From Patescibacteria group bacterium (GTDB lineage: Bacteria > Patescibacteriota > Patescibacteriia > UBA2591 > UBA4787): DNA of 64,000 nt. The stretch's first letter is position 1. Every line of letters starts with the position of its first letter. The stretch lies in NCBI GenBank assembly GCA_028715115.1, contig JAQUSN010000001.1, forward strand, positions 67,314-131,313, read 5' to 3'. Positions 1,814 through 58,651 of this stretch are shown here, one piece after another. Both the position numbers and the translations under genes were made by a program. The notes beneath the pieces were generated by a model. It did not search any database and was not told the DNA's origin. It saw only the letters and a list, made by a program, of their open reading frames with translations.

Positions 1814-3019
1814 TTATTCGGAACAATTATTACAAAAACTGGCTGATTGCATTTCCCGACAAATATGGCATATTTCTTTGGCGTTTAAAGCGCGATTATA
1901 AATGCGCATATCATCAACAAGGCCGTTCGCATAATAACTTGAACCAAATTTCCCCGTTAGAAACTTTGATGGGCCACTCGCCAATGCGCCAGATGCCGCC
2001 GTGGGTGCTCCCGAAGCCCCATTTACATAAGCAGTTAAAAACGATCCATCCCAAACCATAACAATATGAGAGAATACAGTAGTGTCGGAAATTGAAGCAG
2101 TGGCATTTTTACTAACACCGTCCACATTAACCGTGGTGAGTATTGATGATCCCGCCTTTGGAATAAGAAATAAATTATAGCCTCCACTTCCATTAATAGC
2201 TGCAGCTATCAGATGATGTGTGCTATTTGTGCCGCCAGAGTCTCTAAGTCGTTTCCACCATACACTTACCGTAAACGCAGAGGGCGTAGAAATAGCGCTA
2301 CTCGCCTGCACGTAATTTTTGTTGGTCCCGTCAAAGTTCAAACAGCCACCAGAACCGCACCCCGAAATTTGCCAAGTCGGTGGTGTAGCGCTTAATGTTC
2401 CGTTATTGCCCGAACCCGAGTCATCCACTGTCGTTGCTCCGGCTCCACCCGTCCCCTCTTCAAAATTCCACCAGCCCAATAAACTAGAATAATTTGGATC
2501 AAGATTTGAAAGTCCGCTTGATGGCCAAACAGACTTGTAGGCAGAAAGAAGAATGGAAGAAAAACTAGAATAAGCTTCAAAGAATTGAGGATAGAGGCCT
2601 CCGTCGCCCTGAGAAGAGGTATAGCTAGAAGATGACTCTAATTTAGCAGCTATTCTGAAATTTGTGCCATCTGAGTTATATAGATAACACTGCTGATTAG
2701 GTAGAGGGTCATTAGGAATATTAGGTATTTGGGCTAAAAGGTTGGTACACCAGGCCGGAGGAGAATCAGCCACGCAAGTAGACAGACAAGCAGTAGCAGT
2801 GGGATTAGGATAGGCGCTGTTAGTGGCATAGGCTAATTCCAAGGCATTGGCAATCTGTTTAAGATCTGCCATGCGTCTCGCGTCCCTAGACTTAGCTCGA
2901 GCAGCGCTAAAGCCGGGAACCGCAAAGGCCACCAAAAGACCGATAATAGCCACGACAATGAGTAATTCAACGAGAGTAAAGGAGTGTCGAGAAAAATCAG
3001 ATTTTTCTAAACTTAACAT
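1814..3019 (-). CDS. Type IV pilin-like protein with C-terminal LamG (concanavalin A-like lectin) domain
   Basis: N-terminus ...SRHS/FTLVELLIVVAIIGLLVAFAVP is a class III prepilin leader plus the hydrophobic N-terminal helix (N-methylation motif). The C-terminal segment resembles a LamG/ConA-like domain. Confidence 0.65.
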   Translation of the reverse strand: MLSLEKSDFSRHSFTLVELLIVVAIIGLLVAFAVPGFSAARAKSRDARRMADLKQIANALELAYATNSAYPNPTATACLSTCVADSPPAWCTNLLAQIPNIPNDPLPNQQCYLYNSDGTNFRIAAKLESSSSYTSSQGDGGLYPQFFEAYSSFSSILLSAYKSVWPSSGLSNLDPNYSSLLGWWNFEEGTGGAGATTVDDSGSGNNGTLSATPPTWQISGCGSGGCLNFDGTNKNYVQASSAISTPSAFTVSVWWKRLRDSGGTNSTHHLIAAAINGSGGYNLFLIPKAGSSILTTVNVDGVSKNATASISDTTVFSHIVMVWDGSFLTAYVNGASGAPTAASGALASGPSKFLTGKFGSSYYANGLVDDMRIYNRALNAKEICHICREMQSASFCNNCSE

Positions 3020-3033
3020 AGATATTAAATATT

Positions 3034-5415
3034 TTATTTCTTCAGAGCCATGGTGGTTTTAATGACCGTGTCTGGATTAAGAGAGATGGAATCAATCCCT
3101 TCTTTGACTAAAAATTTAGCAAAATCAGGAAAGTCCGACGGCGCTTGTCCGCAAATACCAACTTTGCGCTTATATTGATGGGCGATTTTTATTAACTGAC
3201 GGATTAAAATTTTAACTGCCTCATTTTTTTCATTAGCAATGTGTGAAATTATCCCTGAATCGCGATCAAGCCCTAACGTCAACTGAGCCAGATCATTAGA
3301 GCCGATCGAAAACCCGTCAAAAATCTTACTAAACTCTTCGGCTAAAATTATATTTGACGGAATTTCTGCCATCACATAAACCTTAAGCGGTTTTAGTCCT
3401 GCTTTCTGCTTTTTTAACCCATGAGCGTTAATAATCGAAATAACTTTTTGGCCCTCTTCAATCGTTCGACAAAACGGCACCATGGCGATAACGTTGTCTA
3501 ACCCGAAAATTTCGCGAACTTTTTTAATCGCCCGGCATTCAAGATCAAAGGCTGCTTTAAATTTTTGATCATAATATCTTGAAGCGCCGCGCCAACCAAT
3601 CATCGGATTCTGCTCAACTGGTTCAAATAATTTTCCGCCAATTAAGTTGGCATATTCATTGCTCTTGAAATCAGAAAAGCGAACGATCACGTCTTTGGGA
3701 TAAAACGCAGCAGCAATACGGCCAATGCCTTCGGCTAATTTGTCGACGTAAAATTGAGTTTTATTGCTATAGCCAGCCGTAATTTGCTTGACTTGTTTTT
3801 TAACCGAGGCTGGCATTTTAGAAAAATTAAGCAAAGCCAGCGGATGAATACCGATATAATTATTAATAATAAATTCTTCTCTGGCTAATCCAACACCGTC
3901 ACTCGGAATAAAAGAAAAATTAAAGGCCTGATCTGGTTCGCCCACATTCATCATAATTTTAACTTTTGGCCGATATAAACCCTTAAGAGAGGTTTTTTTA
4001 ATTGTAAAGGGCAAAATTCCTTGGTAGATGATTCCTCGCTCGCCCTCAGCGCAACTAACTGTTACTTTTTGTCCAGAACGCAAAATTTGAGTCGCCTTAG
4101 TGCTGCCAACCACACAAGGAACACCAAGTTCGCGCGACACAATTGCCGCATGACAAGTCCGACCGCCTTCGTCAGTGATAATCGCCTTAGCCATTTTCAT
4201 AACCGGCACCCAATCTGGATCGGTCATCTTGGTCACTAAAATTTGCCCTGGCTTAAACTGTTCGATTTCTTTGACGTTCTTTATTACCCTGATTTCGCCC
4301 TGACCGATTTTTGAACCAATGGCAATGCCTTCTAATAAAACTTTTTTATTTTTTGCGGATTTGTCAAAAACATATTCTTCCAAAACGTTAACGTTTTTCT
4401 TGGATTGGACCGTCTCTGGCCGGGCCTGAATAATATATAAACTTTTATCATGGCCATCTTTTGCCCATTCGATATCCATCGGCCGGCCATAGTGTTTTTC
4501 TATGGTTATTGAATAACGAGCTAGTTCTAAAATTTCTGAATCAGTGAGAGTAAATTTTTGCCTTTTATCAATAGGTGTCGTTAAATTTTTAGTCGGCCGA
4601 CCTGATGCTTTATTGTAAATCATGGTCACTTCTTTGCTGCCCAATTTCCTTTTAATAATTGGCTGATAGCCCTTTGTTAATAACGGTTCGTAAACCATAA
4701 ATTCATCAGGCGTAACGCGCCCCTTAACAATATTCTCGCCCAGGCCCCAAGAAGAATTAATTACGGTCACGTCGGCAAAGCCAGATTCTGTATCGCAAGA
4801 AAACATCACGCCAGAATAGGCCAGGTCAGAGCGAACCATTTTTTGCACGCCAACCGATAACGCGGTTTTAAGATGATCAAATCCTTGTTCCACGCGATAG
4901 ACAATTGCTCGGTCGGTAAATAACGAAGCAATGCAAAGACGAACTGCCTTTAGAACTTCTCCTTCTCCGGAAATATTCAAATAAGATTCTTGGGCTCCGG
5001 CAAAAGAGGCGCCCGGCAAGTCTTCGGCCGTAGCCGAACTACGCACGGCGACATCCAAATTTTCCGTATCATATTTTTTTGATAACTGCCGATAATATTT
5101 TAAAACTTCTTTGGTTAATTTTTCTGGCAAAGGAGTGGCAGAAATCATCTGGCGGATGGTTTTGCCTCGATAGGCCAAATCTTTCAAATTTTTTATATCG
5201 AGGCCGGTTAGTGCTTTTTTTATTTTTTTATCTAAACCGGTTTGTGCTAAAAAATATCGATAAGCCTCGGCAGTTGTCGCGAATCCGTCTGGCACTCGCA
5301 AACCATGTTTAGTTAATTGCGTAAACATTTCTCCAAGAGATGCATTTTTACCGCCCACCCTAGAGATGTCCTTAATTCTTAGATTCTTAAATGGTAAAAC
5401 AAAATCTTTTGACAT
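3034..5415 (-). CDS. ppsA: Phosphoenolpyruvate synthase (pyruvate, water dikinase)
   Basis: 793 aa; N-terminal ATP-grasp region with GGKNASLGEM, central phosphohistidine domain (GGRTCHAAIVSRELGVPCVVG) and C-terminal PEP-utilising TIM barrel; typical length and order. Confidence 0.9.
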   Translation of the reverse strand: MSKDFVLPFKNLRIKDISRVGGKNASLGEMFTQLTKHGLRVPDGFATTAEAYRYFLAQTGLDKKIKKALTGLDIKNLKDLAYRGKTIRQMISATPLPEKLTKEVLKYYRQLSKKYDTENLDVAVRSSATAEDLPGASFAGAQESYLNISGEGEVLKAVRLCIASLFTDRAIVYRVEQGFDHLKTALSVGVQKMVRSDLAYSGVMFSCDTESGFADVTVINSSWGLGENIVKGRVTPDEFMVYEPLLTKGYQPIIKRKLGSKEVTMIYNKASGRPTKNLTTPIDKRQKFTLTDSEILELARYSITIEKHYGRPMDIEWAKDGHDKSLYIIQARPETVQSKKNVNVLEEYVFDKSAKNKKVLLEGIAIGSKIGQGEIRVIKNVKEIEQFKPGQILVTKMTDPDWVPVMKMAKAIITDEGGRTCHAAIVSRELGVPCVVGSTKATQILRSGQKVTVSCAEGERGIIYQGILPFTIKKTSLKGLYRPKVKIMMNVGEPDQAFNFSFIPSDGVGLAREEFIINNYIGIHPLALLNFSKMPASVKKQVKQITAGYSNKTQFYVDKLAEGIGRIAAAFYPKDVIVRFSDFKSNEYANLIGGKLFEPVEQNPMIGWRGASRYYDQKFKAAFDLECRAIKKVREIFGLDNVIAMVPFCRTIEEGQKVISIINAHGLKKQKAGLKPLKVYVMAEIPSNIILAEEFSKIFDGFSIGSNDLAQLTLGLDRDSGIISHIANEKNEAVKILIRQLIKIAHQYKRKVGICGQAPSDFPDFAKFLVKEGIDSISLNPDTVIKTTMALKK

Positions 5416-5898: not shown

Positions 5899-6258
5899 AT
5901 GGCGCGAAAAGCAACACCAACAAAACGAGTCCCGCCAATGGCCGGCTGCCAGAAGGTCAGCTTCGTCAGCAGCAGCGGTACCAACTGGGAAGACCTGTTC
6001 AAAGAAGGAGGGATGATCTTGTCCCTTCATCGCCCAGGAAGACGTGCCTCGGCCGCCCTTCGCCTGGTAAGCGTCCTCGACATCCCTCGCACTCAAGCGC
6101 CGATTATCGTAGTCCTGAGACCGGCGAACGAAACCGAGGACACGCTTATTCCCGGCTTTGTCTGGCCGGCATTTCCTTCGCAAGGATCAGACGGACCCAT
6201 CCGCATCAAGGGGTGCCTGCTCGTCCCAGACAACTACACAGACAAACTCAACCTCTAG
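5899..6258 (+). CDS. Hypothetical protein encoded in GC-rich island 1
   Basis: 119 aa ORF; AAGGAG RBS 5 nt before the ATG; TTGACA-type -35 upstream; followed by a strong intrinsic terminator. Coding GC about 57% by eye versus about 35% in the flanks. The minus-strand ORF 5869-6183 overlaps it and was judged spurious. Confidence 0.4.
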   Translation: MARKATPTKRVPPMAGCQKVSFVSSSGTNWEDLFKEGGMILSLHRPGRRASAALRLVSVLDIPRTQAPIIVVLRPANETEDTLIPGFVWPAFPSQGSDGPIRIKGCLLVPDNYTDKLNL

Positions 6259-6307
6259 GCGTACACCGATCAGACAAGGAGGACCAGTCCAGCGTGTATC
6301 CATTCTA

Positions 6308-6344
6308 GCCCGCCGCAGCTTATCTGCGGCGGGCCTTATTATTT
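6308..6344 (+). terminator. Intrinsic terminator (GCCCGCCGCAG-CTTAT-CTGCGGCGGGC + T-run)
   Basis: Perfect 11 bp GC stem, 5 nt loop, then CTTATTATTT. Confidence 0.65.
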
Positions 6345-6359
6345 AAAAAAATATCAATC

Positions 6360-6388
6360 TTGACAAATCACTAAAATTTTGCTACAAT
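6360..6388 (+). promoter_or_regulatory. Consensus sigma70-type promoter TTGACA-N17-TACAAT
   Basis: TTGACA at 6360-6365, 17 nt spacer, TACAAT at 6383-6388; AAAGGAGG RBS at 6411-6418 then GTG start at 6424. Confidence 0.65.
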
Positions 6389-6423
6389 TACAATATAAGC
6401 ACACAAACCAAAGGAGGAATGCC

Positions 6424-6888
6424 GTGAGAAAAACGCTTGTGGCCGTAAGCCTCGTCTGCCTTCTGACCGTCCCGACCTTCGGGTTCGACGTGGTCAAATT
6501 GACCATGTGCAGCGGTCAACCGGCCAACTTCAAGGCTGCCACTACCCTGTTCGGACCGCTGATGGCCAGGATCGGCATCCCGATCCCAGCCAAGCCTATG
6601 TCCATCAACTTGGGTCTTGGAGCCATGTTCCGGATCCAAATGAACCAGAACAGCGTCTTGAGTCTCAATCCGCTCATCGCTATGACGGTGAGCGATACCT
6701 CGCAGGGCCCAACGCCCTACGTACCGCTCATCTCATCAGACAACGTCTTGAGCCTCTGCCTCGGCAAGACAACCGGGCCAGAGTTCGAAACAAAGTTCGC
6801 GGCCGACTACTGCCTGACCGCAGCGCCGGGCGATCCCAAGATCGTTCCCTCCGGATATCTCTTCGGACTCCAACGACTCAACGGCTGA
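6424..6888 (+). CDS. Secreted hypothetical protein (signal peptide) in GC-rich island 1
   Basis: GTG start 5 nt after AAAGGAGG; N-terminus VRKTLVAVSLVCLLTVPTFG is a signal peptide. The six-frame ORF track opens at an upstream ATG (6379) that lies before the RBS. After the TGA at 6886 the same frame stays open for 61 further codons. Confidence 0.5.
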   Translation: MRKTLVAVSLVCLLTVPTFGFDVVKLTMCSGQPANFKAATTLFGPLMARIGIPIPAKPMSINLGLGAMFRIQMNQNSVLSLNPLIAMTVSDTSQGPTPYVPLISSDNVLSLCLGKTTGPEFETKFAADYCLTAAPGDPKIVPSGYLFGLQRLNG

Positions 6889-12473: not shown

Positions 12474-12508
12474 AAAAACGCATATTTTCTCGACCGAGAA
12501 AATATGCG
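12474..12508. repeat. 35 bp exact repeat copy 1 (AAAAACGCATATTTTCTCGACCGAGAAAATATGCG), containing a 14 bp perfect hairpin
   Basis: Identical to 13132-13166; the two copies bracket the single gene 12564-13115. Confidence 0.8.
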
Positions 12509-13131: not shown

Positions 13132-13171
13132 AAAAACGCATATTTTCTCGACCGAGAAAATATGCGTTTTT
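13132..13171. terminator. 35 bp repeat copy 2 plus T-run: hairpin terminator
   Basis: CGCATATTTTCTCG/CGAGAAAATATGCG stem followed by TTTTTATTATT. Confidence 0.65.
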
Positions 13172-25067: not shown

Positions 25068-26562
25068 CTAGCGAATAAGGACGAGCCTGACTGGCGGCGA
25101 ACCATCCGAGGTTCTTGCTTCGTAAACGCCATTCGGCGCCGCGAAACCGCCATCGTCTCTTCCATCCCAGAGACGCCCTGATTCTCGTCCAGCAACATGC
25201 CTGACGCACCGGCCGGTAGAGTTATAGATTTTAACCGAGTTGACGCTGGTTAAAAACCTAAACTCCCTGCCAATCGTCGGCTTAACGACCAGCGGCTTTC
25301 CGGCATGGATTAAGGTCGAGCTTTCTTCGATGCCCATGGCTGGCACAACCAGACGAACGCCATAGCCAAGGTGATGAGCCACTTTGTGGCGCCGACCCAC
25401 GGCTATAATCGTATCTCCCCTGGCTATCCAGTCGCGAAGACAGAAACTCGGTAGGAAACTGTCTGATCCATGGAATGTCCAGAGGGTATCTTGATTCGCA
25501 TAGTCGAATGCCACAACCAGGCCGTGGCCAAAGGCGCCGCCACCCTGACCGACTGCTATTACTACGTGCCCGCTGGCCCATTTCTTCAGCCTATACAAAA
25601 CCGAAGGGTTGCCGTATGAGAAGTAGGATTTGGTCCAAAGCGTATCGCCATTTCTTAGGTCAACAGCCATAAACCAGAATCTTCCTTCATCGTAACGCGA
25701 AGTCTTTGCTACCACTAGGGCGATAGTATCATCCAGTTGCTCGACGTCGGCGGCGTCATCGGCCGAATCGGGATTGCCGTAAGTGCGACTCCATAACAGC
25801 TCCCCCGCCGTATCCAAGCGGGTAACAGATATGTCCCAAGCATGCATTTCGTTGGTGTCGGCGACAGTGCCAACAACAATAAAATCGCCATTGGTAAGAC
25901 GCCGCATGCTTCTAACGCTGTCCTTTCTGGCAAGACTATAGGTCCGACGCCAAATCGGAACAGCGTGACAGTTGATCTTCATCAACAGCAGATTGGACAT
26001 GCCGAGTTCTTTGCGGGTAACCGAATCAACCGGACGGTTCTCTCCAGCCACCATGATGTTACTATCGTTGGGCAACATGACTGCGGCTCGGACGTAGTCA
26101 TCGCTCGGGAGTACGGGTAGATGGTAGAAGAAGTTGATGCTGTCGAATCGCTCGTTAACAGCTGCCTGAACCGCGAAAAAGCCGCAGAAAGGATGGTCCC
26201 CCGAGAGGTTCACGCCAACCGCATAGAAAGTATCCCTGTGACTAAATAGCTCACAGGGATCTTCGTGGGTGTAGACGTAGGGGGGCGGAACATTATAGGC
26301 ACGCCGTCCCAATACCTCCCCCTGTGTATTCATCCGGAACAGAGCAACTGGTAGCGTCGCGGCTCCTGGCGGAGTCGGCTCCCAATCAAAAGTACCCAAC
26401 ACTATGAGCTCATTGCCCCAGGGAGCTTCATAGATCCGATAGTACAACGACCCAAGAATGCATGTATCCCGAAACTCCCCCCAGGTTGATAGGCGCTACA
26501 GCCGACGCAGTCGTGGCCAGAAAGACCACGACCAGACAGACGACCATTATCAGGTGTTTCAT
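25068..26562 (-). pseudogene. Frameshifted gene for a secreted beta-propeller-like protein with T9SS-type C-terminal sorting-domain-like tail (GC-rich island 2)
   Basis: The ATG at 26562 with an AAGGAGG RBS gives signal peptide MKHLIMVVCLVVVFLATTASAVA, and that frame stops after 44 codons. The 459-codon body is in the +1 frame with no start of its own (the track uses an internal TTG). Deleting one G from the G6 run (C6 on the plus strand, 26477-26482) fuses the two. The C-terminus VKIYNSTGRCVRHV...LWDGRDDGG...GVYEARTSDG...RLVLIR matches the Por/T9SS CTD or FlgD-Ig-like pattern. Coding GC is about 58% by eye. Confidence 0.55.
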
Positions 26563-27142
26563 TTTCTGCCTCCTTAGCAGAGTTTGTTAAAGATCTCCTC
26601 CTGATTGAGCCATAATAGGCCCATGATTCGGTTTTATCGCGTTTTAAAATAATGTCAAGCCCATTTAGAACAACTTTACCCCGTTAATCAGGAAGCTGTC
26701 ATTAAAACTAGGCATAAATTAATTTTAATATTCGAGTAGAATATTCCTTTTTAAAAAATAGGGATTAACGGGGATTACTAACTGCCTTTGTTTTGACTTT
26801 AATATATTACTTTAATGCATTAATGTTAACATTTTGACTCATATTTCTACGGCCGTTAAAATGTGAGTCAAAAAACAATTTATGCCATTTATTTACATAT
26901 ATATAAATAAGGGCCATGTTTACGACGTTATAAAAGAGAAATATAAAATTTTCTAACTGGGTAAAGGTACAATTTTCTGCTATAATAAATAGTATCAAAC
27001 GTACAATTTATAGTATATAACCTATAATATTTAATAAATATGCGTATTGGCATAGACGCTCGCCCCCGGTCACAAGCAGGGCATGTGAGGGGACGTCGCT
27101 CGTTTAAACCAATTACGTTATCATGATTAAATAATTAATAAT

Positions 27143-27682
27143 TTGGCTTTGTTTATGAAGATAGGAATAGACGCTCGCTTCTTTGGCCCACAGGGCAAAG
27201 GAATCGGCAGATACACAGAGAAGTTGATTGAATCTTTGGAAAAGCTCGATCAAAACAACGAGTATTTTATCTTTTTAACTAAAGAGGGGTTTGATTTGTA
27301 TGAACCTAAAAACAAGAACTTCCATAAAGTTTTAGCTAATTATCCTTGGTATTCTTTTAAGGAACAATTGCTTTTGCCAAGACTACTAAACCAATATCAT
27401 TTGGATTTGATGCATTTCTTACATTTTAATAAACCACTACTCTACAAAGGAAAGTATGTGGTGACTATACATGATTTGACCTTGTTGGATTTCTCGACAA
27501 AAAAAAACACCCAGGGAAAATCCTGGTGGTGGTTTAAAAATATTATTTTTAAAATCGTCATCAGTCAGTCAATAAAAAGCTCGGAAAGAATTATCGCTGA
27601 CTCGCAATTTATAAAAAACGATCTATTGAAAAGGTTTAAAATACCAGAAGATAAAATTAAGGTTATAGAGTTGGCAGTGTAA
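27143..27682 (+). pseudogene. Glycosyltransferase family 4, N-terminal fragment only (truncated)
   Basis: 179 aa; MKIGIDARFFGPQGKGIGRYT is the canonical GT4 N-terminus, but the ORF ends after the first Rossmann half. The 5' end of the gene is partially duplicated at 27041. Confidence 0.55.
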
Positions 27683-28639: not shown

Positions 28640-30157
28640 TTAACGAACGACGATAACCTTGTGAGTCTTTTCCAGGTCAGTATCAAACAGGAAGAACACT
28701 CCCTGCTCGATCGGGTCCTGAATTCGCCGTCCATTGACGTCGAAGATGACGAACTTGTGTTGAGCGAAGACGCGCTTGAAAGACGCGAACGGGATGACGG
28801 TAGGAAGGGGCGCCTCGTGATTAAGCACATTTGCCTGCTCTTCAAGTATACTGGTTGGTAGTATGTAGATGCTGTCGACAAGGGTGTCGTTGTGTGGCGA
28901 CTGGTCGCCCGAGAGCTGAGTGACACAGCGAACGCGCACCCATCCAGTAGTGCTATCGCTACGGGACGAAAAGCTGATGAGAGCTTCGTGGTTGGGAAGT
29001 ACTTGCGAACTGGTGTCTAGATAGCGGTTGGAATCGACGTAGAGTTCAGCTGGAATGACAGTGGGGTAAATGCCGTGATTTTTGACGTTGATGTTAATGC
29101 CAAACGAGACGTTGAGATTCACAGTGTCTGGAACGACCAGCTCCAGCGGCTGAGCATCGATTGAGTCGATGATAGCTGGCCGAGGCCACAAGACAAAGAT
29201 GTCTTTAAGGTGGCCCGGATCGACAATCTGGTAATCCTCGTATCCTGGCCTGGTGTTTCGAGCTCGAATCCAGGTAGAACACTTGGCTACAGAAAGTCGG
29301 CTGTCGTTAAAGCCAGGTAGATCGCGGCCATTAACCGTATCAATCGCAGTCAACCAATAGCCGGGCGGAGTGCCGTTCGTGCTGCGATACCAGCTCGGTT
29401 CAATCCCACCGCACAGCACTGTTCCCAGATGAGTCCAAAACTCAAGCTGGTAGTTGACGTCATTCTCGCATCCTGGCGTATATGGTGCGCCGGGATACTC
29501 GTAGTCATCAGCCCAGCCTGGAGACCAGGCTGGCTGGGGTCCGGCCGCGCTTACGACTACAGTCTTATAACGGATGGCTTCCGGCGCTTTACAGCCAAAC
29601 CAGGTAGCAATGCCCTGGTGCAAACTGTCTACACCAGTACCAAAGGCGAAACAAGACCAAACGGCAACGAACTTGTAGCCAGGCACTGCACAGCACCAAG
29701 CAGCTAACATACTGTCGGTCAGGACTTCGTTGTTCCACAGAACCGTCTGCCAGAGATGCTCTGGTGGAGGGCAACCATGGCCGATAACCTGAACAACCAG
29801 GATGTCGTTGGAGTCCATCTGACTACCATAGCTGCTAAGGTGGCGCTGAATGCTTGCGAGCGTAGTCGAATCATCAATCGGCGATCGCCGATATTTCACA
29901 CTAACGCCCGAAAGGGGATTTCCCCGCTGTGGCCAAGCATTGCCCATCAGATTGACGTTAGTATCGACCTGAAACCGGCCGTCCTGGCAAGCCGAGTCAT
30001 ATCCTTTCACCTGATACCACATGCAAATGTCGTCACTCATGTTCTGAGCATTGGACGTGCAAATGGTCAGACTGAAAACCTTCTGGGAGTCCGGCGTCTG
30101 GGCAAAACCCAAGCCGAACAGCACCAGAACGAACAGAGCGGGAAAGAGCTGTTTCAT
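28640..30157 (-). CDS. Secreted protein with T9SS-type C-terminal sorting-domain-like tail (GC-rich island 3)
   Basis: 505 aa; signal peptide MKQLFPALFVLVLFGLGFAQ; Cys-rich body; C-terminus KFVIFDVNGRRIQDPIEQGVFFLFDTDLEKTHKVIVVR resembles a T9SS CTD. AAGGAG RBS 7 nt before the ATG. Coding GC about 55% by eye. Confidence 0.6.
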   Translation of the reverse strand: MKQLFPALFVLVLFGLGFAQTPDSQKVFSLTICTSNAQNMSDDICMWYQVKGYDSACQDGRFQVDTNVNLMGNAWPQRGNPLSGVSVKYRRSPIDDSTTLASIQRHLSSYGSQMDSNDILVVQVIGHGCPPPEHLWQTVLWNNEVLTDSMLAAWCCAVPGYKFVAVWSCFAFGTGVDSLHQGIATWFGCKAPEAIRYKTVVVSAAGPQPAWSPGWADDYEYPGAPYTPGCENDVNYQLEFWTHLGTVLCGGIEPSWYRSTNGTPPGYWLTAIDTVNGRDLPGFNDSRLSVAKCSTWIRARNTRPGYEDYQIVDPGHLKDIFVLWPRPAIIDSIDAQPLELVVPDTVNLNVSFGININVKNHGIYPTVIPAELYVDSNRYLDTSSQVLPNHEALISFSSRSDSTTGWVRVRCVTQLSGDQSPHNDTLVDSIYILPTSILEEQANVLNHEAPLPTVIPFASFKRVFAQHKFVIFDVNGRRIQDPIEQGVFFLFDTDLEKTHKVIVVR

Positions 30158-30226: not shown

Positions 30227-30258
30227 ATTATAATACACCAAAAATTGACAAAAGTCAA
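30227..30258 (-). promoter_or_regulatory. Promoter TTGACT-N17-TATTAT(AAT) for the island 3 gene, overlapped by TTGAC-N4-GTCAA palindromes
   Basis: Minus strand reads TTGACTTTTGTCAA-tttttggtg-TATTATAAT...TTGACAAGTGTCA...AAGGAG...ATG. Confidence 0.55.
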
Positions 30259-30455
30259 CCCGTAAAGCTAACTTTTGCACTATGAGGTTTTCTCGCTACA
30301 TTTGGTCTAATATTTATATTTTTAGTAATTTTCATTAACTATGACGCCACGGGTCACGGCCCGTAAAGCTAACTTTTGCACCGCGGATTTTTTTGATTAA
30401 TTAGCTTACTTTTAGTCCAGAATCTAACGCAACACTCTTGACGCCACGGGTCACG
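30258..30455. repeat. Interleaved direct repeats: A = (A/G)CCCGTAAAGCTAACTTTTGCAC x2 (30258-30280, 30359-30381); B = TGACGCCACGGGTCACG x2 (30342-30358, 30439-30455)
   Basis: Exact 22/23 bp and 17 bp copies spaced about 100 bp apart, in the order A-[B A]-B, upstream of the island 3 promoter; a degenerate third A-like copy lies at 30511-30530. Confidence 0.75.
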
Positions 30456-52158: not shown

Positions 52159-52536
52159 CTATCGAACAATCTGGTAGTACGTGGTTAGCGTATCGCCCAG
52201 ACCCTTGCGCCAGAACATTATCATTACTTCGTCTCCATATTCCACGAAACAGTCGCGGCGCGCTTCTCCATAGCAGCTGAGATAGACCCAGAACTTACTG
52301 CTGTAGGTGCCGTCGTTCTCGCGGACCGAAACCTCCAACCACATGGGCTGTTGGCCCTCATTGTACACTTCGGCGCTCTGGTTGGGAACGTGCAAGTACA
52401 AATACACATCCCCAGAAAAGACCAAACCCTGCTGGTCGACGTTCCACGTTTCTACGGGGAAAAACGACTGACAGGCTGGGCCACCAAAGAGAACCAGGGC
52501 CGAAAAGAACAAGAACAGCCTCCCGGCTGTTTTCAT
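52159..52536 (-). CDS. Small secreted protein (GC-rich island 4)
   Basis: 125 aa; signal peptide MKTAGRLFLFFSALVLFGGPAC; AAAGGAG RBS 8 nt before the ATG; coding GC about 55% by eye. Confidence 0.5.
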   Translation of the reverse strand: MKTAGRLFLFFSALVLFGGPACQSFFPVETWNVDQQGLVFSGDVYLYLHVPNQSAEVYNEGQQPMWLEVSVRENDGTYSSKFWVYLSCYGEARRDCFVEYGDEVMIMFWRKGLGDTLTTYYQIVR

Positions 52537-53042
52537 GATACTCTCCTTTCGTGAAGGCTTGTTTGTCCCTCACTCTTATGCCCCTCAGCCTATGACCTAC
52601 GCTAGATAAACTAGATCAATCATAAATTGTGGCTACTTCCTGACTAGGAGGGATTGTCAGTTTCACCGCTGAGGAGCAGAAGAGTAAAGAACAATTCATT
52701 CATTCATATTAATATCATAACAGATTTTTTGACTTTTGTCAACCCCCCACCCTAAACTTTTTGGCGGGGTTAAGCCCGCACTTGAAATTTATAGGTAAGA
52801 GATCAAGAGGAAGGTGTTGCCTATAATAATTTTTTTTAATATAATAAAGGTAGTCCCTCCTCGCCCAGCTAGCTGATTCGAGGTGCTCCCGCCAGCCGTC
52901 GCCTGCCAGATGTTATAGTAAATAAAATTTAGATACGCCCTGCTAATAATAAACATTGAAAACACTTTGACTTATGGTAGGCAGGCCAAAATTCTAAGAA
53001 AAATTTTACAAATTGTGTGCTTAATTTTCTAATAATCTTAGT

Positions 53043-55948: not shown

Positions 55949-56642
55949 TGAAGAAAGGGCCTTGAGCGAAAACGTTAAGCGTGTTTTTGATTTCTGCCAA
56001 GATAATTTAAGTAATTATGATTGGCAAATTTTAATTGCCGACAATGGTTCAACTGACAACACGGTTTACATTTCACAGAACCTAACCAACCAACACCCCA
56101 GAATAACATATTTTCATCTAGATCAACCAGGGCGCGGCCGAGCCATGAAAAAGGCCTGGCTAGAAAATGAAGCTGATGTTTATTTATATATGGATGCTGA
56201 CCTGGCTACGGATTTAAAATATTTACCCCCGCTAATTAAAGCAATTACTGATGAAGGTTTTGATTTGGCGACCGGTTCACGATTAAAAAGAGGAGCAAAA
56301 ATTTCGCGATCTCTATTTAGAGAAATATCGTCACGAACTTATAATTTAATTTTGAGAGTTATTTTTCCGAAATATAAAATCCAGGATTCCCAGTGCGGCT
56401 TTAAAGCTATTTCTCAGCGCGTAAAAATTAAGGTTTTACCTTCAGTCAAAGATCCAATTTGGTTTTTTGACACCGAATTATTTATTCGAGCCAATGAATT
56501 GGGTTTCAAAATTAAAGAAATTCCTGTCGAGTGGCAGGACAATAAATTCGTCAAAAGAAAGACTCGAGTTAAAATTTTAAAAACCGTTACCGACGATTTA
56601 AGAGAAATTATAAAATTAAAAATAGAATTACTAAAAAAATAA
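55902..56642 (+). CDS. GT2 glycosyltransferase, polyprenyl-phosphate sugar synthase (DPM1/DPG-like)
   Basis: KKILIVLPTLNEE...ILIADNGSTDNT...YMDADL motifs. The likely start is the ATG at 55902; the track ORF begins at 55887. Confidence 0.75.
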   Translation: MITTNKKILIVLPTLNEERALSENVKRVFDFCQDNLSNYDWQILIADNGSTDNTVYISQNLTNQHPRITYFHLDQPGRGRAMKKAWLENEADVYLYMDADLATDLKYLPPLIKAITDEGFDLATGSRLKRGAKISRSLFREISSRTYNLILRVIFPKYKIQDSQCGFKAISQRVKIKVLPSVKDPIWFFDTELFIRANELGFKIKEIPVEWQDNKFVKRKTRVKILKTVTDDLREIIKLKIELLKK

Positions 56643-56805
56643 AAGTAGCTTTACGGACTTGCCCAGTTAGAACAACTTTACTAATACCCTAGTTTCGACC
56701 CATTTTGGTCGTTTTTTAAATTAATATAATATTTTAGTGAATAAACTATTTAACAATACTAGATGAGGCATTGAGGGGGAGAAACGTAAAATTTTCTAAC
56801 TGGGG

Positions 56806-56834
56806 TTGACAAAAAGACAAAAATATGATAGAAT
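56806..56834 (+). promoter_or_regulatory. Consensus promoter TTGACA-N17-TAGAAT for the island 5 lipoprotein gene
   Basis: TTGACA at 56806-56811, TAGAAT at 56829-56834; directly preceded by the 18 bp repeat TAAAATTTTCTAACTGGG. Confidence 0.6.
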
Positions 56835-56903: not shown

Positions 56904-57711
56904 GTGAAGTTCGTTACCACCCTACTGATCGCCATAATGGCGGTCATGTTCGTCGGCTGCGCCACCACCGGCATTACGCCGAATCCCACCGCCGGCTTCA
57001 GGTTTGAGTCGCAGGTAGTCGGTGACCCCCGAGACCGGCCTGCAGACACCAATCGCCAGCGCCGAAGTCTCTATCTCCGGCGCCAACATCCAAGACAGAG
57101 CCCTGCGGGATACGATCATAAAGAACGTCAAGGGCAAATTCGACGAGTTGGTTGACCAATGCCTTCAGTTCAACAACCTCGTCCTAACCAAGGCTGTTCT
57201 GGATATAAAAAAGCGGGATGCCGAAGACTCTATCTTAAGAGCGCAGGGCGTGATCAAGGCCAAGGTGGGCATCATCAACGGCTCTAACCAAGAGCTGTAT
57301 GTGGTGGTCCCATCTCAAGACCGAGGCGTTCGAGTCTGTCCAATACAGACTGCCAAGGTTAACAAGGTGAATGGCAACATTCTCTACCTGACACCAAATT
57401 CCAAAGTACCCCTCGTTGTTCAGAGCAAAGTCAACGGGCGCTGGAGCAAAACGTACACCACTGTCATCGACGTTCCCTACGCAGCTCCAGAAGACCGCAA
57501 GCCCTATCGTGACCTAAACAACGAAGGCTACGACCTCATCTACATCATCAACCTCGACGAGATGAAGCCCGCTTCAACCTCAATCGGAGCTGGCGCAACC
57601 GGAAGTATTGGTGGGGTAGAAAATACCCGTTGCTGCCACAACGACCCAGCCTACTGGCGAACAGCCGGATTCAATGTATATGGGTCCGGACCCGGCGATC
57701 GATTGCGGTAG
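56904..57711 (+). pseudogene. Frameshifted lipoprotein gene (GC-rich island 5)
   Basis: GTG at 56904 after AAGGAGG gives VKFVTTLLIAIMAVMFVGC (lipoprotein signal with lipobox Cys), but that frame becomes Arg-rich nonsense and stops at 57155. The 229-codon protein-like body (57022-57711) is in the +1 frame. Deleting one C from the C5 run at 57026-57030 fuses them (...ESQVVGDPETGLQTPIASAEV...). Confidence 0.55.
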
Positions 57712-57805: not shown

Positions 57806-58225
57806 TTAGGGAGTCGGCGCAACCACGTATTTGATTCTGGAAAGAACAAACATGGCCAAGGCGTAAGAAATCAAAATAATAAATAGGCCGATCACGCCGT
57901 TCATCATTAAAGATTTAGCCTTAGTAATCTTTTCTTCATTGCCGCCGGAGGTCATCCACTGGAAACCACCGATAATGATAATGACCACGGCAATTAGGCC
58001 AAGGAAGCCTAAAACAATGCGAACAATTCGGCCAACAATAATGGCTAGGTCGGTTTGTCCGCAAATTTCCGCCGTACAAGCAGTTCTCTCTAGCTCTTCA
58101 ACTTGAGCATAAGAGGTTAGTACCGGCGCTATGGCTAAAAATATCATAATTAAAAGGCTAACCGCAATTAAATGACGGCTAACCTTTTTAGTTATACTAA
58201 TATTCATTAAATGCTTCATGAACAT
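57806..58225 (-). CDS. Small membrane protein, TrbC/VirB2-pilin-like architecture (paralog 1 of 4)
   Basis: 139 aa; signal/TM segment, then IGRIVRIVLGFLGLIAVVIIIIGGFQWMTSGGNEEKI, then a second TM helix. Confidence 0.45.
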   Translation of the reverse strand: MFMKHLMNISITKKVSRHLIAVSLLIMIFLAIAPVLTSYAQVEELERTACTAEICGQTDLAIIVGRIVRIVLGFLGLIAVVIIIIGGFQWMTSGGNEEKITKAKSLMMNGVIGLFIILISYALAMFVLSRIKYVVAPTP

Positions 58226-58255: not shown

Positions 58256-58651
58256 CTAGTGCTGGGTATTGGTATCAACGATTCTGGTAATCGCGTTCAT
58301 GATGAAAAGCGAAGCAGCGTAAGCAATGACGATAATGAACAAACCGATCACGCCGGCGCCCATTAACTTTTTGGCACCGCCAATCTTTTCTTCATTGCCG
58401 CCGGAGGTCATCCACTGGAAACCACCGATAATGATAATGACCACGGCAATTAGGCCAAGGAAGCCTAAAACCAAACGAACGATACGAGCAATAACCACGG
58501 TTAAGTCGGCATTGCTTAATTCAGTCTGTGTTTCAAACTGTTCCAATCCTTCGTTCATTGGAGGTAGGGCCATGACTATTAGAGGGGCCACCACCATAGC
58601 AGTTAAAGCTGTCGCGATAAGAACTTTTTTCATAGATCCTCTTCGCGCCAT
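58256..58651 (-). CDS. Small membrane protein, TrbC/VirB2-like (paralog 2)
   Basis: 131 aa; same IARIVRLVLGFLGLIAVVIIIIGGFQWMTSGGNEEKI core. A stretch of about 90 bp is nearly identical to paralog 1 at the DNA level. Confidence 0.45.
   Translation of the reverse strand: MARRGSMKKVLIATALTAMVVAPLIVMALPPMNEGLEQFETQTELSNADLTVVIARIVRLVLGFLGLIAVVIIIIGGFQWMTSGGNEEKIGGAKKLMGAGVIGLFIIVIAYAASLFIMNAITRIVDTNTQH

Follow-up and report, generated by a model that had tools for sequence, protein, structure and literature searches.

The locus raises the question of why the same 18-mer, TAAAATTTTCTAACTGGG, stands at two sites of the 64,000-nt stretch of Patescibacteria DNA analyzed here (the window), both times on the plus strand (26944–26961 and 56787–56804) and both times close to a promoter. 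The first-pass annotation had reported this exact repeat and considered its recurrence in 64 kb very unlikely to be due to chance. A scan of the window agreed on both counts: with up to three mismatches allowed, three matches were obtained where 0.31 were expected, and three were reached in 0 of 100 shuffles. The third match (1952–1969) lies within a coding ORF and looks like a chance occurrence. The longer, near-exact match of ∼26 bp with two mismatches was recovered as well, GAGAAAtaTAAAATTTTCTAACTGGG (26936–26961) and GAGAAAcgTAAAATTTTCTAACTGGG (56779–56804) being identical at 24 of 26 positions (written as GAGAAAnnTAAAATTTTCTAACTGGG), and the surroundings were as described before. At island 5, one of five GC-rich genes of the window (see below), the motif stands beside a −35 TTGACA, a single G separating the 18-mer from TTGACA-17-TAGAAT with its TG extension (56806–56834, 11/12); beyond 26961 follow the extended −10 TGCTATAAT (26978–26986) and then a 28-codon ORF (27041–27127). 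From these facts, the annotation had proposed either a promoter-proximal module (UP element or activator site) traveling with the cassettes, or a cassette boundary.

A feature absent from that annotation leads to a different reading. Upstream of each 18-mer lies an inverted partner, CCCATTTAGAACAACTTTAC at 26660–26679 and CCCAGTTAGAACAACTTTAC at 56662–56681, at a distance of 285 bp for the 26944 copy and of 125 bp for the 56787 copy; including the flanking G, the two partners share 20 of 21 nucleotides. Because each 18-mer is paired in this way, it constitutes the right-hand terminal inverted repeat of an element, and two units bounded by inverted repeats are found in the window. Very probably, these two units are copies of a non-autonomous transposable element (MITE) with a consensus of ∼143 nt, the outer part of its right terminal inverted repeat being the 18-mer, and were inserted at existing promoters. 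The features of the two loci are as follows:

26660–26961, plus strand: copy A of the putative MITE, 302 nt, degenerate, with nested insertions, between the island-2 promoter (leftward) and the extended −10 promoter (rightward)
26660–26679, plus strand: left terminal inverted repeat of copy A, CCCATTTAGAACAACTTTAC
26679–26773, unstranded: nested small palindromic element (∼95 nt) in copy A, arms CCCCGTTAATC/GATTAACGGGG, TTA repeats on both sides
26832–26873, unstranded: 42-nt imperfect palindrome TTTTGACTCATATTTCTACGGCCGTTAAAATGTGAGTCAAAA in copy A, not in the family consensus
26943–26961, plus strand: right terminal inverted repeat of copy A, ATAAAATTTTCTAACTGGG, including the 18-mer 26944–26961
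26978–26986, plus strand: extended −10 TGCTATAAT, beginning 17 nt past the right arm of copy A
56643–56661, plus strand: displaced upstream half of the island-5 promoter module, AAGTAGCTTTACGGACTTG, ending in CTTG
56662–56804, plus strand: copy B of the putative MITE, full length, 143 nt, flanked by the GT2 glycosyltransferase gene (stop codon at 56642) and the island-5 promoter
56662–56681, plus strand: left terminal inverted repeat of copy B, CCCAGTTAGAACAACTTTAC
56696–56717, plus strand: intrinsic-terminator-like hairpin in copy B, CGACCCATTTTGGTCG followed by TTTTTT, the 5′ half being the family-conserved CGACC
56786–56804, plus strand: right terminal inverted repeat of copy B, GTAAAATTTTCTAACTGGG, including the 18-mer 56787–56804
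56806–56834, plus strand: core promoter of island 5, TTGACA-17-TAGAAT with TG extension (11/12), outside the element

Copy B matched the element model over its entire length (nhmmer, 107 bits, E = 1e-30, model positions 1–143), could be aligned with eight other copies, and has a terminal stem folding at −32 kcal/mol on the plus and −38 kcal/mol on the minus strand. Its terminator-like hairpin is located 54 nt past the GT2 stop codon and could, judging from this position, now end the GT2 transcript; inside three other scanned copies (L158 and L136 a and b; L numbers denote contigs and loci from other assemblies), no terminator-like sites were listed. The interior of copy A, with a 99-nt insert gapped out, scored 134.6 against the family consensus, compared with 114.5 ± 4.7 for the shuffled interior. 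Its nested palindromic element is placed at the conserved junction CTTTAC/TAAC, which is also where the insertion in L136a is found. On the minus strand, the left arm of copy A adjoins C followed by TTGACA (26658–26653), the −35 box of the island-2 gene. The succession of right arm and extended −10 has a similar counterpart behind a solo arm in L136 (5802–5812). Both copies are flanked by imperfect target duplications, CTTTA/CTTGA in the case of copy A and CTTG (left)/GTTG in the case of copy B. They also have an arm variant in common, TAAAATTTT, whereas most copies elsewhere carry TAAAGTTTT; one degenerate L136 copy has the A variant of the arm, too. Copies A and B are therefore probably derived from a recent common source, which would account for the 18-mer being exact.

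The DNA to the right of copy A has peculiarities of its own. The 28-codon ORF begins with MRIGIDAR and is GC-richer than the glycosyltransferase gene ∼110 bp downstream (27155–27682), which begins with MKIGIDAR, encodes 179 aa comprising only the N-terminal domain of a GT4 and is apparently truncated. The small ORF may be what a recombination event left of a second GT4 gene, of foreign origin. Logan contigs from different samples stop at 26641, 27316, and 27452, and these contigs lack the segment 27317–27451, which is part of the truncated GT4 gene; strain heterogeneity or low coverage around copy A may be the cause.

The element is not confined to the window. With both arms and the conserved interior, it recurred in metagenome contigs of related Patescibacteria, which make up eight further families and in which the flanks are unrelated. 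Among the matches listed from an arm-motif scan of JGI metagenomes, paired inverted arms 93–215 nt apart occurred in L136/L175, L152, L155, L158, and L183, and nhmmer added L162 (two copies) and L150 to the family. L136 contains at least four copies within 7.9 kb, of which one is a short variant of 97 nt and another has nested insertions, and L152 one full copy and a partial left end. As the RNase Y of L136 is 81% identical to that of the 479-kb contig harboring the window, L136 stems from a related Patescibacterium. Individual copies are between 93 and 302 nt long, and none contains an ORF. The consensus is CCCAGTTAGAAcAACTTTAC-TAAyGCC-TTrGTTTCGACC...GCGGCrTTA-AGGGAGAAAC-GTAAArTT-TTCTAACTGGG, of which the arms of 19–20 nt (CCCAGTTAGAAcAACTTTAC and GTAAArTTTTCTAACTGGG) are paired in 98.5% of cells. 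Among full-length copies, GTTTCGACC is invariant but for one substitution (GCTTCGACC in L162a), and GCGGCrTTA-AGGGAGAAAC is kept across the family with a few substitutions. The edges are sharp at CCCAG...CTGGG, outside of which the flanks of different copies are unlike each other. Sites occupied in other genomes include the 3′ end of ftsH, the region upstream of clpP, and spaces between housekeeping genes. In L152 (1995–2005), the element sits in the extreme 3′ end of ftsH, so that the reading frame now ends at the TAG of the arm (CCC AGT TAG). A further small palindromic repeat (L136, 4864–4935) is nested in or beside the MITE, and the block CCCCGTTAGCGCCCACATTTACCTT, likewise in or beside the MITE, is common to L158 (7228–7255) and L136 (5760–5790). 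This lineage seems to harbor several related families of small repeats.

Broader searches yielded no additional members. The degenerate arm motif had 111 single, scattered matches in 185,579 species-representative genomes, a collection without the source genome; they were spread over all phyla at chance level, and none had a partner arm, an adjoining TTGAC, or a match to the element HMM. In IMG/VR viral contigs, at least 118 single arm matches were obtained, and among those listed, none fitted the element HMM. The element had no blastn match in 72,556 plasmids or 50,697 phage genomes.

That the element arrived at its sites by insertion is indicated by its flanks. Exact direct repeats of at least 3 bp, without any shift of the boundary, flank four of the 10 full copies and are 4 bp long in three of them: CAA (L136a), TCAA (L136d), CAAG (L162a), and TTTG (L152). 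In simulations, the mean of such cases was 0.28, and the observed count was reached in 0 of 3,000. When the boundary was shifted by one base, TTTC (L155) and TTG (copy B) were added; three of the 10 full copies are without any target duplication. The clearest case is the orthologous site upstream of clpP, which is filled in L136/L364–366 and in L370–372, with a perfect 5-bp duplication (GATAA–element–GATAA) in L370, and empty with a single GATAA in L367–369, that is, in the genome of the window. In a pairwise alignment, the reconstructed empty site scored 103 against the natural one, compared with 66 ± 7 for shuffles.

For copy B, the empty state was approached in silico. Removal of 56662–56805 joins AAAGTAGCTTTACGGAC to TTGACAAAAAG (−35 TTGACA), which matches the uninterrupted arrangement at island 3, AAAGTTAGCTTTACGGG joined to TTGACT; with copy B and one TTG removed, the joint is AAAGTAGCTTTACGGAC to TTGACAAAAAGAC, its island-3 counterpart being AAAGTTAGCTTTACGGG to TTGACTTTTGTC. 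In the relative L121, whose GT2 is 64% identical, the GT2 gene is followed directly by the T4SS-pilin genes, both island 5 and the element (∼1.15 kb) being absent. The GT2 of the closest relative, contig P0002, is 78% identical. The window belongs to a metagenome-assembled genome, and its sequence is also contained in GCA_028713815.1 and in the Logan assemblies SRR22315506–09 with 99.9–100% identity and identical junctions, which are therefore not assembly artifacts. A chimeric assembly of the islands was accordingly rejected, the independent Logan assemblies of four samples all giving the same junctions.

Small size, lack of coding capacity, terminal inverted repeats, target duplications, multiple copies, and presence/absence polymorphism (the last seen at the clpP site) are the defining features of a MITE, and the element has all of them save an identified autonomous partner. 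Among the ORFs of the window, no transposase or recombinase was found, and an autonomous insertion sequence with the ends of the element (CCCAGTTAGAA...TTCTAACTGGG) was found neither in the window nor, among the matches listed, in the retrieved loci. The element would thus be mobilized by a transposase encoded elsewhere, and its insertion would duplicate 3–5 bp of the target. Each copy in the window would have inserted directly at the 5′ border of an island promoter's −35 hexamer, replacing the DNA upstream of approximately −37. The new upstream DNA would consist of an A/T tract at approximately −44 to −51 and a 19–20-bp hairpin-forming arm, to which copy B would add its internal terminator. 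Insertion of copy B would also have moved the original upstream block of island 5, AAAGTAGCTTTACGG, ∼145 bp off.

Five GC-rich genes are present in the window (5899–6888, 25068–26562, 28640–30157, 52159–52536, and 56904–57711; see also L125). In the GC-rich segments, GC at the third codon position is 0.58–0.73, compared with 0.3–0.4 elsewhere in the window, and each segment has its own AT-rich, near-consensus sigma-70 promoter and its own terminator. Consensus TTGACA-N17-TATAAT sites are few in the intergenic DNA of the window, and most of them belong to these genes, which mostly encode proteins with signal peptides or lipoprotein signals. Only two homologs of the island-3 protein were found, both 39% identical, one of them on a non-CPR contig with 59% GC. 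Taken together, the islands look like horizontally acquired genes. Those of islands 5 (56904–57155/57022–57711) and 2 (26428–26562/25068–26447) each consist of two overlapping frames, the signal peptide part in one and the body in the other, which is the same in independent assemblies; they may be frameshifted pseudogenes or subject to programmed frameshifts.

The islands do share a recurring block upstream of their −35 boxes, although it is not the 18-mer. It reads AAAGT(T)AGCTTTACGG, with (G) at the end, followed by a −35 region of the TTGAC-N4-GTCAA type, and occurs twice upstream of island 3 and once at island 5, where it is split by the MITE. Sites of this promoter module are as follows:

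30245–30275, minus strand: island promoter module
30346–30383, minus strand: island promoter module
52714–52770, minus strand: island promoter module
56643–56661 with 56806–56834, plus strand: island promoter module
L162, 1–60: island promoter module
L136, 3070–3128: island promoter module

The core promoter of island 5 is homologous to those of island 4, L162, and L136. In islands 3 and 4 and in L162, the −35 region is the palindromic TTGAC-N4-GTCAA, followed by ...CAAAAAT.TG.TA.A.T, and nearly the same promoter (TTGACAAAAGTCAAAAAAT.TGTTATG.T) was present in contigs from other metagenomes. The AAAGT(T)AGCTTTACGG module, rather than the 18-mer, is thus the candidate for a shared promoter of acquired genes, and its TTGAC-N4-GTCAA palindrome could be an operator. 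Identifying the MITE thereby helps to define the true shared architecture of the island promoters and removes a false lead, namely the idea of the 18-mer as a regulatory mark of the GC-rich islands.

Still, the position of the element relative to promoters is not random. TTGACA or TTGCCA, with a −10 at the proper spacing, follows an arm after 0–1 nt at the left end of copy A, the right end of copy B, and in L136a, L136d, L162a, and L162b. In other words, five to six of ∼12–15 independent insertions adjoin a sigma-70-like −35/−10 site, whereas a promoter-like site (at least 10/12) begins at only ∼4% of the intergenic TTG sites in the window, which corresponds to a binomial P of ∼1e-4 for at least five of 12 insertions. 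Where the duplication is cleanest (three insertions), it consists of TTG(A) or CTTG from the −35 region. Because the flanking duplications include part of the hexamer, the promoters are older than the insertions, and because TTG(A) is duplicated, the −35 box stays whole while touching the end of the element. A target of 3–5 bp alone does not account for the enrichment, which is best explained by target preference (for TTGAC-like sequence or promoter DNA) or by selective retention; in the latter case, insertions could have been kept where they are least harmful, or where they are useful. The insertions at clpP, in ftsH, and in L158 show that the preference is not absolute. In the promoter-adjoining copies, the A/T tract of the arm, AAAATTTT, comes to lie at approximately −44 to −51, ∼8–15 nt upstream of the −35 box, which we take to be about where UP elements of sigma-70 promoters are located. 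The element may exert a secondary, acquired effect on the adjoining promoters. A more far-reaching proposal would be that it inserts preferentially, or is selectively retained, immediately upstream of consensus −35 boxes and acts there as a portable upstream module (e.g., a hairpin/terminator insulator plus A/T tract), rewiring horizontally acquired genes for GC-rich exported proteins in a CPR bacterium; we consider this rather unlikely. In any event, arms flush against −35 boxes provide a test case for distinguishing the targeting of promoters by a transposon from mere tolerance of its presence there.

The same observations are what speaks for a functional promoter-proximal module (UP element or activator site) native to the promoters of the GC-rich islands and traveling with them: six arms directly adjoin a −35 box, they do so more often than random intergenic TTG sites would, and AAAATTTT lies roughly where UP elements are located. 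However, these six are out of ∼24 arms, most of which have no adjoining promoter, and the promoters of islands 3 and 4 work from this same core but have no such motif. The duplications lie around the inverted repeats and take in part of the −35 box, and the element also occurs in the 3′ end of a gene (L152) and at least 20 nt away from the −35 box (clpP). As an account of its origin, the module is contradicted by the filled and empty sites, which leaves it very improbable. The first-pass annotation itself had named copies at unrelated sites as the mark of a generic repeat, and such sites (ftsH, clpP, housekeeping genes) are where the element was found in related genomes. Of the proposed module that travels with cassettes, the mobile unit and its enrichment beside promoters thus stand, whereas an intrinsic UP element or activator site does not. 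The other proposal, a cassette boundary, finds some echo in copy B, which begins 20 nt past the GT2 stop codon, where the ∼1.15-kb insertion lacking in L121 has its left edge, and in L136, where a GC-rich ORF (2747–3073) lies between element copies; in addition, the arm core TCTAAC/GTTAGA resembles what we take to be the core sites of integrons, YYYAAC/GTTRRR. Against an attC- or att-like recombination site that captured the GC-rich cassettes, islands 1, 3, and 4 are without a copy, and the element occurs at island-free sites (such as ftsH, clpP in L370, and L158). Its core sites are in the wrong order (GTTAGAA left and TTCTAAC right, as opposed to 5′-RYYYAAC...GTTRRRY-3′), neither an integrase nor a cassette array was found, and, as the displaced promoter half at 56643–56661 shows, sequence belonging to the island itself extends leftward beyond the element. 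The boundary reading was rejected on the order of the core sites and the lack of an integrase, and its probability is minimal.

Inverted repeats of 11–20 bp around short intergenic segments, beside genes for surface or exported proteins and glycosyltransferases, are also what an inverton would look like, in which the repeats serve as recombination sites and the segment of 125–285 bp flips to switch the neighboring genes. Relative to the neighboring island gene, the asymmetric inner parts of the arms indeed point in opposite directions in the two copies, and promoter-like sites are present on both strands within copy A. Yet the strong promoters are outside the repeats and not between them, no invertase or recombinase is among the ORFs of the window, and all independent assemblies spanning the sites have a single orientation (L001–L004 at copy B, L124 at copy A). 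The opposite orientations belong to two different loci and simply reflect two insertions. As target duplications and the comparison of filled and empty sites indicate insertion as well, the inverton was rejected as exceedingly improbable. Somewhat less remote, though still very improbable, is a multicopy structured non-coding RNA that requires the long terminal helix, the element being either no transposon at all or an RNA as well. Folding z-scores are between −2.7 and −5.8 with a closing stem of 19–20 bp, 95% of cells are paired, and the conservation of GTTTCGACC and AGGGAGAAAC would fit an RNA, too. At three arm or subterminal positions, both sides of the pair change together (GC/CG, CG/UA, UA/CG), which could reflect a constraint on a hairpin (RNA or DNA) or equally well one protein recognizing both ends. 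Against an RNA, there was no Rfam match to the element even at E values up to 5 (the best, E = 0.42, being far below the gathering score of that family), and a scan with Rfam 15 at gathering thresholds returned a tRNA-Leu as the sole match above the gathering score. RNAalifold recovered little beyond the terminal stem (−4.6 kcal/mol, with a positive, i.e., unfavorable, covariation term), the two strands fold equally well, and the unit has neither a promoter or terminator of its own nor conserved neighbors. The comparison rests on nine related sequences, too few to decide.

As a MITE, the element resembles several bacterial MITEs and palindromic repeats, namely the Correia elements of Neisseria, ERIC/IRU of enterobacteria, RUP of Streptococcus pneumoniae, and the palindromic elements of Rickettsia. 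It has in common with them the non-coding size of 100–150 nt, terminal inverted repeats of ∼20 bp able to form a long hairpin, short target duplications, nested insertions, and many copies at unrelated, mostly intergenic sites. Like the Rickettsia elements, it clips the 3′ end of a gene in some insertions (here ftsH in L152), and like Correia elements, copies of which have been reported beside promoters, it is found next to them. To our knowledge, its sequence is not similar to that of any of these families, and contact with the upstream edge of a −35 hexamer, as seen here in about half of the insertions, is not a property described for them. The host, a small-genome lineage of Patescibacteria (CPR), is different as well. 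The duplication of 3–5 bp is variable, unlike a fixed TA. Some insertion sequence families (ISfinder), such as IS1380 (4–5 bp), have ends starting with CC and short, variable duplications; the element is similar to them in its CCC ends and 3–5-bp duplications, and neither a transposase gene nor a full-length insertion sequence with these ends was found. With UP elements of sigma-70 promoters, it shares the A/T tract AAAATTTT, and differs from them in that its sequence arrived by insertion and in that most copies are away from promoters. A search of the literature on MITEs in CPR/Patescibacteria and on mobile promoters returned no relevant report. The element would thus represent a new family of a well-known kind in a lineage for which no earlier description was found, and would mean that a small-genome Patescibacteria lineage carries a MITE family, with nested insertions, that is active or has recently been so.

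Two other repeats of the window were noted. Identical 35-nt palindromes, AAAAACGCATATTTTCTCGACCGAGAAAATATGCG (12474–12508 and 13132–13166), surround an ORF of 183 aa with a PaaX central (Cas2-like) domain; the palindromes may represent either a terminator present in duplicate or the termini of a further small element. A direct repeat of 193 nt with 81% identity (57861–58053 and 58317–58509) lies in two adjacent T4SS-pilin-like genes, which are tandem paralogs, and it is in this region, at 57955, that Logan contigs break.
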